Shown here: positions 25,734 to 28,500 of the stretch, one piece after another
Layout of the letters: each line of letters opens with the position of its first letter
Position numbering within the stretch: the first letter of the stretch is position 1
Source of the DNA: an uncultured Acidobacteriota bacterium
GTDB taxonomy: Bacteria > Acidobacteriota > Thermoanaerobaculia > Gp7-AA8
NCBI GenBank assembly: GCA_963741955.1
Contig: CAVUKB010000005.1
Span: 416,001-480,000, forward strand
Direction of reading: 5' to 3'
Length of the DNA stretch: 64,000 nt
Made by a program: the position numbers and the translations under genes
The notes under the pieces: generated by a model
Seen by the model: the letters and a program-made list of their open reading frames with translations, nothing else
The model's database searches: none
What the model was told of the DNA's origin: nothing

Positions 25734-26452
25734 TCCGCGAAGCGGGTCGCGCGTTCCGCGGGTCGCGCGTCCTGTGGGTCGCGCGTCTCGCGCGAGGCTC
25801 CCCGGCATCCTGCCGGGGAGCGATGGCGGCAACGCCACGCAAAACGCGCATCTCGCGCCGCAGTCCGTTCGTCTCTCGACTCTCGGGACGATCCTCGTAT
25901 CTCGCACCAGGCAGGGCGGCGCGGGACGCCGCCCTGCATCGGGCGAGGACGCCCAACCCACGACTGTGGGTCGCGCGTCTCGCGCGAGGCTCCCCGGCAT
26001 CCTGCCGGGGAGCGATGGCGGCAACCAAACGCGGATCGCTCCTCTCGCGCCGCAGTCCGTTCGTCTCTCGACTCTCGGGACGATCCTTGTATCTCGCACC
26101 AGGCAGGGCGGCGCGGGACGCCGCCCTGCATCGGGCGAGGACGCCCAACCCACGACTGTGGGTCGCGCGTCTCGCGCGAGGCTCCCCGGCATCCTGCCGG
26201 GGAGCGATGGCGGCAACCAAACGCGGATCGCTCCTCTCGCGCCGCAGTCCGTTCGTCTCTCGACTCTCGGGACGATCCTCGTATCTCGCACCAGGCAGGG
26301 CGGCGCGGGACGCCGCCCTGCATCGGGCGAGGACGCCCAACCCACTGGGCATCGGGCGAGGACGCCCAACCCACTGGGCATCGGACGGGACGTCCAACCC
26401 ACGACTGTGGGTCGCGCGTCTCGCGCGAGGCTCCCCGGCATCCTGCCGGGGA
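25734..26452. repeat. REP/REPIN-like array, 192-bp units (left of IS)
   Basis: Units start at 25772, 25964, 26156 and 26405. Bounded by GTGGG/CCCAC with four internal hairpins. Confidence 0.92.
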
Positions 26453-26485
26453 CTGGAGTTTGGCGTTTCTCGAGCAAGGCGCGAG

Positions 26486-27898
26486 CTACGAAGTGGCGTA
26501 CTGGACAGCCATTTCGGGGGTGACAGCGGATTTCGAGCGCTTCAGGTGTCGTGCGACGGGGGTCTGGAAGTCGGTGAAATTGGGGGGTTCGAAGTTGCGG
26601 ATGTGGCGAATGCAGGCGGATCGCATCGCGCGAAGGTACTGGCCGGTGGGTATTCGCCACTGATCGGGGATATCGTTGTCTCTCCACTTGGGCATCAGTT
26701 CGGGGGGCGCAGTGGAGCCGAGGCCGAAGCAATCGGCGGCAGCGAGGAGCATCATCGAGTAGACGGCTACGGCGAAAGCGGGCAGCGAGTCGACCGATCG
26801 CCGGTTGCGCACCTGCGCCTGGCCGACACCGAAGATCTGCTTTTCGTCGCGGTGATTGACCTCGATATCCCAGCGGCGGAAGTAGGCTTGGACGAGCTCG
26901 ACGAGCGAGAGTTTCAGGTCGGTACAGATCAGGAACGCCGGTTTGCGATACAGCAGGCGTGATTTCTTGCGGAGCCGATAGCCCAGTGGCCGGATCACGA
27001 CGAGCCGCAGAGGCAGTTCATAACCCGAAGTTTTCCAAAGCACGGGACCGATGGTCTTGATCGAACAGGCGTGTTCACGACCCGAGGCCCAGACTTGGAC
27101 CTGTTGCCAGTCGATGGATTGGTCCACGCGGAGTTGATCGGGTGTTGGGGCCTGATCGCCATACCAGCGCTTGCGTCCGCGAAGCGGTTGAGAGTTTGGA
27201 GGAAAGAACAGCTTCGCGTCGCCTCGGATGCGACCGATCAGGATCGTTCGTTCCGGCAAGTTCCGCAGAACCGTACGGTTGGTGTAACCGCCGTCAACCA
27301 CCGGCATCAGCACGCGCTCGCTCGCTCCGAGCTGGTCAAAGTCCTTGCGAGTTTGGATCAGCAGACGCGTTGCACCGATGGAAAGATTCTGCTCTTTCTG
27401 CTGGCGACGATACTCGGCACGTTCCTGCTCGGTTGCTCCGGCCCCCGGGCGAACCGCCGGAGGCTGGTGATTGAACCGGATCGGGAAGCTGCGCGCCGGA
27501 CCGGCAGACTGGCCAGTTAAAGGAACACTGATCGCAGCCTGAATGAACCGTTGGGCGCGGATCAAGTTCGTGTGGAAAGGCGGCGACATCGGATCGCGCT
27601 GATAACTCACGCCTGGGATCTTCATGCCCGTCTTGCGCAACTTCGTGTCATCCAGCGGCAGCACCAGCGGTGCGTCGAGCGGCAAGTACGCGAGCAGGTG
27701 TCGTTCGATGACTCTGAACATCTCGCTCACATCGAACCGACCCTCCGAGAAAACGCGATAGTCTGCCGACCAGTCCTGCTGCGGATCGCGGCCTGCTTCA
27801 ATCATTCCGCTTACCGTGTGTCGCCCGGTGCAGTTGAGCAGGCCGATGGCCAACCCACGAACCCGCTGAAGCACCCGAGCATCACAGGATCCATTCAA
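26486..27898 (-). CDS. DDE transposase (IS701/IS4-like)
   Basis: LPLDDTKLRKTG, VVDGGY and YFRRWDIEVNHRDEKQ. Only a weak TTG start; the frame stays open upstream to the A9 tract. Confidence 0.88.
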   Translation of the reverse strand: MNGSCDARVLQRVRGLAIGLLNCTGRHTVSGMIEAGRDPQQDWSADYRVFSEGRFDVSEMFRVIERHLLAYLPLDAPLVLPLDDTKLRKTGMKIPGVSYQRDPMSPPFHTNLIRAQRFIQAAISVPLTGQSAGPARSFPIRFNHQPPAVRPGAGATEQERAEYRRQQKEQNLSIGATRLLIQTRKDFDQLGASERVLMPVVDGGYTNRTVLRNLPERTILIGRIRGDAKLFFPPNSQPLRGRKRWYGDQAPTPDQLRVDQSIDWQQVQVWASGREHACSIKTIGPVLWKTSGYELPLRLVVIRPLGYRLRKKSRLLYRKPAFLICTDLKLSLVELVQAYFRRWDIEVNHRDEKQIFGVGQAQVRNRRSVDSLPAFAVAVYSMMLLAAADCFGLGSTAPPELMPKWRDNDIPDQWRIPTGQYLRAMRSACIRHIRNFEPPNFTDFQTPVARHLKRSKSAVTPEMAVQYATS

Positions 27899-27938
27899 TT
27901 CGTCGAAGATCGCGTTGAATGAGCGAAGAAGATTTCGA

Positions 27939-28148
27939 TCAGCGTTTTTTTTTGACCCGCTTCGCTTCGACGGTTCCGGTCGGATCCTTTGCCCGCTTGA
28001 GGATCAGCGTTCGCTTGTCCTCGATGACCCATTCGACGATCTCACCGCGAATGAATTCACAAGCTTGGGCCACGGCCGCGGGAAGGTTCACGTACCACTG
28101 CCTGCTCTTTGCACGAGCGATCAGCTGCACTTTGGTTGGAAATCCCAT
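27939..28148 (-). CDS. Small AbrB/MazE-like DNA-binding protein (IS orfA)
   Basis: [36 protein letters not shown] with a GGAGG RBS. Ends on the A9 tract. Confidence 0.75.
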
Positions 28149-28194
28149 GGTGACCTCCTTCTGGTCTAGTGATATAACTAGATACCACGGGACG

Positions 28195-28221
28195 AAAAAA
28201 AAGTCCAGAATTCCTGGACTT
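28195..28221 (-). terminator. Intrinsic terminator just inside the IS upstream end
   Basis: On the minus strand, AAGTCCAG-GAATT-CTGGAC followed by T8. Confidence 0.65.
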
Positions 28222-28255
28222 CCGCCCAACGACTCCGAGTTCCGCCAAACTCCAG

Positions 28256-28500
28256 TCCCCGGCATCCTGCCGGGGAGCGATGGCAGCAATCAAACGCAGA
28301 TCCCGCCTCTCGCGCCGCGGTCCGTTCGTCTCTCGACTCTCGGGACGATCCTTGTATCTCGCACCAGGCAGGGCGGCGCGGGACGCCGCCCTGCATCGGG
28401 CGAGGACGCCCAACCCACTGGGCACCGGACGGGATGTCCAACCCACTCGAGCATCGGACGGGACCTTCAGTCATCGAACAGGACGTCCAACCCGCTTGCC
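28256..28500. repeat. REP/REPIN-like array (right of IS)
   Basis: Continuation of the interrupted 192-bp unit plus degenerate sub-repeats. Confidence 0.88.

Follow-up and report, generated by a model that had tools for sequence, protein, structure and literature searches.

Hairpin-length target-site duplications of a DDE insertion sequence from an uncultured Acidobacteriota bacterium and of related elements

How does an insertion sequence come to lie between two intact copies of a hairpin that each unit of the interrupted array carries only once? This question is raised by a stretch of 64,000 nucleotides (C5:416001-480000, here called the window, where C5 is contig CAVUKB010000005.1) from the genome of an uncultured soil bacterium of the Acidobacteriota (assembly GCA_963741955.1; 5.4 Mb in 16 contigs). 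In this window, an insertion sequence (IS) with two overlapping open reading frames (ORFs), orfA and orfB, is inserted in a non-coding satellite array (Table 1). A first-pass annotation had proposed that the element duplicated an entire hairpin of the repetitive extragenic palindromic (REP) type as its target site, and the window bears this out. Both ends of the element are directly abutted by TCCCCGGCATCCTGCCGGGGA, the two 21-bp copies being 100% identical according to both the sequence and a repeat finder, and every uninterrupted array unit holds a single hairpin (at 25799, 25991 and 26183). Because the loop reads TCC on the left as well as on the right, the flanks are repeated in direct orientation and do not prolong the inverted repeats. 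The latter are perfect over 13 bp (CTGGAGTTTGGCG ... CGCCAAACTCCAG) and include the end motif CTGGAGTTTGG, which is kept among relatives of the element. The further proposal that the duplication coincides exactly with the stem-loop had to be corrected: the palindrome in the array measures 25 bp and has an 11-bp stem (GC TCCCCGGCA TCC TGCCGGGGA GC), and the duplication of the window copy ends 2 bp inside this stem on each side. As DNA, the left copy of the duplication folds with −11.2 kcal/mol (z −5.2). The 21-mer occurs 108 times in the genome, always within arrays, and its occurrences are spaced by at least 167 bp except across the element. The targeted hairpin is part of a dispersed satellite with array periods of about 170-310 bp, which is found mostly on contigs C5 and C4, and the window array also contains a 29-bp sub-repeat at 26320-26402.

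Five identical copies and their unfilled targets

The genome contains exactly five copies of the element and no fragments, and these copies are 100% identical across 1803 bp, which indicates that the element is recent or was recently active. All five are flanked by exact direct repeats that are themselves palindromes, with lengths of 20, 21, 21, 24 and 27 bp. These five duplications represent four unrelated sequences, since one REP-like hairpin was used twice, in opposite orientations. It gave 21 bp at the window copy and 27 bp at the fifth copy, where the cuts fall 3 bp farther out on each side. When folded as single-stranded DNA, the five duplications reach −8.2 to −15.0 kcal/mol, and none of 200 shuffles folds as well. 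A chance origin of the hairpin flanks is excluded. Moreover, the fact that identical copies bear different hairpins shows that the hairpin is not carried along with the element. None of the five insertion sites is entered by an open frame of at least 110 codons. At the locus L003 the hairpin lies about 6 nt past the stop codon of a conserved gene, a position that resembles that of a terminator. In the duplications at L001 and L002 the hairpin loops resemble the IS terminus, and one of them includes CTGGAGT, the first 7 nt of the element; this likeness may be a coincidence.

For three of the five copies the flanks derive from dispersed repeats, so that unfilled versions of the target could be inspected in the same genome. 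On uninterrupted members of these repeats the left and right flanks overlap by exactly the length of the duplication, namely by 21 bp for the window copy (166 candidate pairs, one of them a trivial self hit), by 27 bp (176 pairs) and by 21 bp (21 pairs), where each of the three counts includes one or two trivial self hits. The unfilled target therefore holds one hairpin. The same holds for another Acidobacteriota genome, which represents a second lineage and has six copies: 19 of 19 uninterrupted members of the targeted repeat examined there show a single hairpin with the right-hand flank immediately after it. A scan of 6586 hairpins of the own genome for tandem duplications that could represent excision footprints gave one match. 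This sole tandem hairpin, with a 23-bp unit at C5:1091480-1091525, was rejected as a footprint because it lies within a run of a 16-nt microsatellite.

In public reads the element was found in contigs of one soil study only. One of these metagenome contigs is exactly 1803 nt long and has a depth about 4.5 times that of the flanks. In this study, no metagenome contig holding the element bridges an empty site, and no RNA run was among the listed data sets that contain the element.

Hairpin flanks among related elements

To place these five insertions in a wider frame we turned to the relatives of the transposase, of which a protein collection contains more than 3229 at E ≤ 1e-3; nearly all among the matches listed have the Pfam domain DDE_5. 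The best match that carries a taxon name is in line with a placement of the genome in Thermoanaerobaculia. A profile scan of one genome per species yielded 80 loci in Acidobacteriota, Planctomycetota, Verrucomicrobiota, Kiritimatiellota, Hydrogenedentota, Bacteroidota, Pseudomonadota and other phyla, which together with the five own copies gave 85 loci. When searched for the end motif, 66 of them had both ends; nine of these 66 lacked a flank because they reach a contig end, and 57 were readable. Matched duplications were present at 38 of the 57 loci (35 exact, one with one mismatch and one with two). They range from 16 to 28 bp with a mode at 21-22 bp, and each of the 38 is self-complementary about its midpoint, with no more than one mismatch inside. 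The cut tends to fall just outside the palindrome. Relative to the outermost base pair it lies at +1 in 26 events, at 0 in five, at +2 in three, and at −1, −1, −2 and −4 in the remaining four, so that the length of the duplication tracks that of the palindrome.

The hairpins themselves are unrelated in sequence among events, with AT-rich stems in some and GC-rich stems in others, and insertions occur in both orientations. In one Opitutales genome, 16 identical copies lie next to 16 different hairpins. Thus, the two findings that could have undone the first-pass annotation, a hairpin that travels with the element and short non-palindromic duplications at other copies, were not encountered: identical copies differ in their hairpins both in the own genome and in the Opitutales, and the five own events as well as the 33 events in relatives are palindromes of 16-28 bp. 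All 27 copies in the three genomes of highest contiguity have matched duplications. When a hairpin flank is defined by a perfect stem of at least 6 bp, a loop of at most 6 nt and a stem that ends 0-3 nt from the IS end, 111 of 121 flanks adjoin a hairpin, compared to 32 of 3000 control positions in the same loci. The other ten flanks are mostly palindromes with one mismatch. Two further insertion junctions, in soil metagenome contigs, also adjoin hairpins.

The first-pass annotation had regarded REP arrays as landing sites. Several REP-like families are indeed hit, and unique terminator-like hairpins are hit as well, so this idea holds in a broader form in which hairpins in general are the targets. 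The tetranucleotide GTAG was observed immediately 5' of several targeted hairpins (in the flanks of L008, L015, L052 and L079 and in one metagenome contig). As GTAG is typical of REP sequences that are bound by RAYT transposases, true REPs are among the targets. A longer variant of the element was seen at L027; it measures 2376 bp, about 570 bp more than the window element, and has perfect 16-bp ends and a 23-bp palindromic duplication.

The transposase, its upstream reading frame and known families

The product of orfB matches Pfam DDE_5 at 1.4e-16. It also matches the NCBIfam model NF049999 (transpos_IS701_3) with 177 bits for the 505-aa frame and 171.9 bits for 470 aa, just above the cut-off of 170, and the model also finds 28 of 28 relatives at E ≤ 1e-5 (3.4e-64 for the best; this is an E-value criterion and not the bit cut-off). 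Scores against the classic IS701 model NF033540 (53 bits, cut-off 150) and the NCBIfam IS4 models (16-35 bits, cut-offs 115-250) are far lower, and no IS1182 or IS5 model is among the Pfam or NCBIfam matches of orfB. By profile score the transposase belongs to the IS701 family. In an alignment of 28 sequences the residues D83/D84, D202, Y339, R342, E346 and K353 are invariant, which gives a complete YREK signature (Y-2-R-3-E-6-K). The protein models with a Tn5-like fold: its AlphaFold model (predicted local distance difference test score, pLDDT, 81; predicted template modelling score 0.79) has the Tn5 transposase as best Foldseek match (E 4e-9, probability 1.0, TM about 0.5), and piggyBac is the next family. 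A search of the transposase profile against the sequences of the PDB gave nothing significant, the relation to Tn5 being visible by fold alone. In a plasmid collection only distant homologues were found (23-26% identity), all of them labelled 'transposase', with no ISfinder name. Together, the IS701_3 and DDE_5 matches, the YREK signature and the Tn5-like model agree with the IS701/IS4-like transposase that had been suggested for this element.

Upstream of orfB, orfA is kept in 26 relatives. Fourteen of 27 orfA members have weak matches to Pfam MazE_antitoxin, and the AlphaFold2 model of orfA shows a beta-beta-alpha-beta-beta layout (pLDDT 77.8) whose top Foldseek matches, all weak (E 0.17-3), are MazE, VapB, C56, AbrB and SpoVT. 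A DNA-binding domain of the SpoVT/AbrB type is therefore predicted as the probable nature of orfA. The two ORFs meet at a run of A residues. As A8 or A9, this run is conserved in all 29 unique elements with such an orfA. The frame of orfB relative to orfA is −1 in 20 of them (A9 in 18, A8 in two) and +1 in nine (A9 in eight, A8 in one). The window element belongs to the +1 group together with the elements most closely related to it, and one genome contributes five of these nine as near-identical copies. L006 (+1) and L007 (−1), which are close relatives, keep the same A9 in opposite frame relations. The orfA frame terminates in the A9 run and conservation of the orfB frame starts there; in three elements a stop codon stands just before the run. 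That A9 is kept with both frame relations fits slippage of RNA polymerase in two directions better than −1 ribosomal frameshifting, and the alignments thus suggest two-directional transcriptional slippage at this site. The available part of Baranov et al. (2005, PMC1088944) describes IS elements that use A9, and sometimes A8, slippage runs in an orfA/orfB overlap, with a fusion implied by the conserved ORF organisation. The elements studied here share this conserved run of 8-9 A residues and the implied fusion. They differ from the elements in that part of the source in that they represent other IS families and in that orfB stands at −1 or +1 relative to A9.

The upstream ORF is modular. It is AbrB/MazE-like in most elements, of the HARE-HTH type in L060, L061, L066, L070 and L080-L082, and DUF6788 in L025. 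The HARE-HTH members lack the A run and all seven match PF05066, four of them above the cut-off. Whatever the upstream ORF, the end motif and the hairpin flanks are alike, and the HARE-HTH subgroup has palindromic duplications of 19, 20 and 28 bp. For this reason orfA was rejected as the determinant of target choice, and the choice of hairpins most likely belongs to the DDE core.

The match to IS701 models goes together with clear differences from that family. Members of IS701 have a single transposase ORF, whereas the present element has two, which overlap at the A9 recoding site. According to the sections available of De Palmenaer, Siguier and Mahillon (2008, PMC2266710), IS701 elements duplicate exactly 4 bp, are 1400-1550 bp long and in most cases lack the YREK signature. 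Shared features are the DDE transposase with its matches to DDE_5 and to NCBIfam IS701 models and the terminal inverted repeats; in contrast, all 38 matched events found here have duplications of 16-28 bp, the length of the element is 1803 bp and YREK is complete. With the IS4 family (sensu De Palmenaer 2008) it shares this complete YREK and the Tn5-like transposase, but not the duplication of 8-13 bp or the IS4 profile match. A comparison with the best structural match, Tn5/IS50 of the IS4 family, leads to the same picture, since the YREK signature is shared whereas the scores against NCBIfam IS4 models stay far under the cut-offs. The duplication that Tn5 makes on bent B-form DNA has a fixed length of 9 bp, unlike the 16-28 bp found here, and Tn5 forms a DNA hairpin at the transposon end during excision.

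Other elements are known to choose hairpins. The entry '0-60 bp' is said to stand for IS1182 in ISfinder. Target choice in staphylococci has been described for IS1272 and TnSha1, which belong to the IS1182 family and which, in the available parts of Furi et al. (2016, PMC4923244) and Wan et al. (2017, PMC5678879), target hairpin-forming inverted repeats without a sequence consensus, as is the case here. The same two sources, in these parts, cite Siguier (2015) for palindrome targeting by some IS1182 members. They further describe that IS1272 deletes or replaces its hairpin without a duplication and that TnSha1 deletes it too (PMC4923244, PMC5678879), IS1272 attacking the 3' feet in the model of Wan et al. 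(PMC5678879), whereas here the hairpin is duplicated intact on both sides by a transposase of the DDE_5 and not the IS5/IS1182 type. An outcome in which the hairpin is duplicated is drawn by Wan et al. as the hypothetical pathway b of their IS1272 model (in the available part of PMC5678879); here it is the rule, and we infer that the mechanism proposed below corresponds to this pathway. REP hairpins as landing sites are also known from ISPsy8, ISPa11, ISPpu9/10 and ISRm22, for which the available text of Tobes and Pareja (2006, PMC1525189) gives a fixed insertion position within one REP and repeats of 0-6 bp, and from IS1397, ISKpn1 and IS621 as cited there. These elements have in common with ours that REP hairpins are used, several of which carry GTAG here. 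As far as that text describes them, they split one specific REP, whereas the present elements use unrelated hairpins, cut outside the stem and leave two intact hairpins. In our literature search only the IS1272 papers came close and no description of hairpin-length duplications by any IS was found, with the proviso that ISfinder or TnPedia entries with long repeats may exist. A family-wide rule of hairpin duplication appears to be undescribed.

Table 1. Coordinates of the insertion sequence, its duplicated target and the interrupted array, numbered from the first nucleotide of the window.
Feature	Position	Strand	Remarks and basis
Insertion sequence, 1803 bp	26453..28255	- (genes)	Five copies in the own genome, identical over 1-1803
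21-bp target-site duplication, left copy	26432..26452		9-bp stem and 3-nt loop; sequence, repeat finder
21-bp target-site duplication, right copy	28256..28276		Sequence, repeat finder
Terminal inverted repeat, orfA-distal end	26453..26465		13/13 bases complementary to 28243-28255
Terminal inverted repeat, end upstream of orfA	28243..28255		Pairs with 26453-26465
orfA, 69 aa, probable SpoVT/AbrB (MazE-like) DNA-binding domain	27939..28148	-	Translation, profiles, model
A9 run (T9 on the + strand) in the orfA/orfB overlap, candidate transcriptional slippage site	27945..27953	-	Conservation
orfB open frame (stop to stop, 505 codons), in frame +1 to orfA, DDE transposase	26486..28003	-	Profile matches
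Non-coding satellite array of 192-bp units, target of the insertion	25772..26431, resuming 28277 to ~28500	+	Tandem Repeats Finder

How the target may be chosen

In DDE transposition both 3'-OH ends of the element are joined to the target, one to each strand, at positions offset by a 5' stagger, and the duplication results when the gaps are repaired. When a duplication has the length of the hairpin, has the dyad of the hairpin as its midpoint and extends 1 nt beyond the stem, each strand must have been attacked at the 5' foot of its own hairpin arm. At the base of a cruciform the two sites of attack would be neighbours whatever the length of the stem, whereas on B-form DNA they would lie 16-28 bp apart and on varying faces of the helix. 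This is the main argument for capture of a four-way structure, and the tracking of stem length by the duplication likewise speaks against a fixed stagger on B-form DNA. We therefore propose that the transpososome of this IS clade picks its target by DNA secondary structure and that the palindrome is engaged as an extruded or protein-induced pair of hairpins, a reading to which we assign a probability of roughly 0.7. A broader claim is that a widespread Tn5-fold DDE clade, with thousands of metagenome homologues and with members known from at least eight phyla, takes a four-way junction as its target, much like a junction resolvase that integrates DNA, and that the secondary structure of the target and not the transpososome geometry sets the duplication length; we give this claim even odds.

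In molecular terms, the palindrome would be engaged as two hairpins, either in an extruded cruciform or in a form induced by the transposase, and strand transfer would occur at the 5' feet of both hairpin arms. Each arm would remain joined to its own 3' flank, and gap repair would copy the arm so that a whole hairpin results on both sides of the element. Cuts inside the stem, such as those at the window copy, would arise when the junction had partly migrated into the palindrome. The active transposase would be an OrfA-OrfB fusion, produced by slippage of RNA polymerase on A9, that combines an AbrB-like domain with the DDE core, and OrfA alone would serve as a regulator. Since the terminator or REP hairpin stays intact in the host and hairpins bracket the element on both sides, damage to the host should be low.

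Several observations weigh against target choice by secondary structure or complicate it. We infer the engagement of a cruciform solely from the geometry of the products. The first-pass annotation had suggested structure-directed cleavage at the base of a cruciform; the geometry supports cuts at the base, recognition of a cruciform as such keeps this conjectural standing, and the window copy was cut 2 bp inside the stem. In addition, the stems measure 6-12 bp, which is little for spontaneous extrusion at physiological supercoiling, so that the protein would have to drive or trap it. Recognition is also not purely structural, as there is a base preference at position +6 of the duplication. A G is found there in 59 of 76 half-sites compared to 35% in the 6586 hairpins of the own genome. 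This count is not one of independent events, since every palindrome enters it with two mirror-image half-sites and a single repeat family supplies five of the events. This G may be a base contact that sets the exact cut. For L001 and L003, which lie in unique intergenic DNA, no orthologous empty site was found in 30 related genomes from other genera, where coding flanks alone matched, at 66-77% identity.

A further observation against it concerns the 19 of 57 loci that carry different sequences on the left and right. At 17 of these a hairpin is nonetheless present on both flanks. For L076 the partner hairpin was found at a contig end beside the opposite IS end, which identifies the mismatch as an assembly join across the repeat; the same genome has another 20-bp palindromic pair that is split over two contig ends. 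Unmatched flanks likely result from recombination between copies or from misassembly, which has been directly demonstrated for this one locus only. The fairly contiguous Hydrogenedentota genome G032 harbors a related IS of 1904 bp of which three of four complete copies (L128-L131) are unmatched, with different REP-like hairpins on the left and right, and one is matched at 20 of 21 bases. One 23-bp hairpin flanks one copy on the left and a different copy on the right, a pattern that is expected from recombination or rearrangement between IS copies. G032 is an incompletely explained exception. At least three copies of the 1904-bp IS in this genome (among L133-L135 and L141-L143) share an insertion of about 1.17-1.23 kb near position 203-206, and two of them show a 4-base query overlap at the insertion that resembles a 4-bp duplication; this insertion of about 1.2 kb looks like a nested element that was later copied along with its host IS.

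The unmatched loci, together with the fact that REP-like hairpins of different families adjoin each other in some genomes, are what one would cite for the view that the repeats were not made by transposition, but were part of the element ends, pre-existing tandem hairpins, or products of recombination or chance. We regard this as very improbable. Identical copies bear different hairpins, the empty paralogous sites have a single hairpin, hairpins in the arrays of the own genome are never closer than 167 bp except across the IS, and the genome-wide scan for tandem hairpins gave only the microsatellite case. A more serious alternative, which we nevertheless consider unlikely, is that a two-fold symmetric transpososome reads a weak half-site, such as the G at +6, on a B-form dyad and cuts with a long stagger and without any extrusion. 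The enrichment of this G and of C at +4, +5 and +8 relative to hairpins of the own genome would be accommodated in this way, as would the commonest duplications of 21-22 bp, which correspond to about two helical turns. What such a model does not predict is that the duplication varies between 16 and 28 bp with the outer edge of the stem and does not keep to a fixed distance, or that one and the same REP hairpin gave 21 bp as well as 27 bp. In addition, AT-rich and GC-rich stems have no sequence in common, and the cut sites would fall on different helical faces, 54-95 angstroms apart. Slightly less probable still is the use of single-stranded hairpins at replication forks or in transcription bubbles, with the two ends of the element joined in separate steps and no cruciform involved. 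Short palindromes do fold readily once they are single-stranded, and several targets, for example at L003, look like terminators or REPs in transcribed intergenic DNA. However, the cuts are strictly symmetric on both strands in 38 of 38 events, so both strands must be in equivalent structures simultaneously, and strand transfer by a DDE enzyme that yields a duplication requires both strands.

Accepting recognition of secondary structure as the preferred reading, we class the element as a DDE insertion sequence with structure-defined target choice and variable duplication, and the elements across many phyla suggest that the enzyme recognises DNA shape rather than sequence. The length of a target-site duplication is treated as a fixed family signature that reflects how far apart the two active sites lie on B-form DNA, whereas the 16-28 bp observed here are the length of the hairpin. 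Software that annotates IS elements on the expectation of 2-14 bp duplications will set the ends of elements of this clade in the wrong place. If the reading is true, this would be the first group of DDE insertion sequences with a structure-defined, variable duplication, and its insertions would be indirect evidence that short palindromes are engaged as hairpins in bacterial chromosomes and that a Tn5-like enzyme reads DNA shape. The elements would then represent a natural reporter of hairpin or cruciform formation in living bacterial chromosomes, and a shape-directed integrase could serve as a probe for non-B DNA. The old question whether short REP and terminator palindromes are extruded in vivo becomes testable by an integration assay. 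Finally, hairpin duplication offers a mechanism for the way in which IS elements are known to cluster at REPs and terminators, and for a lifestyle that does little damage because the hairpin of the host is kept.

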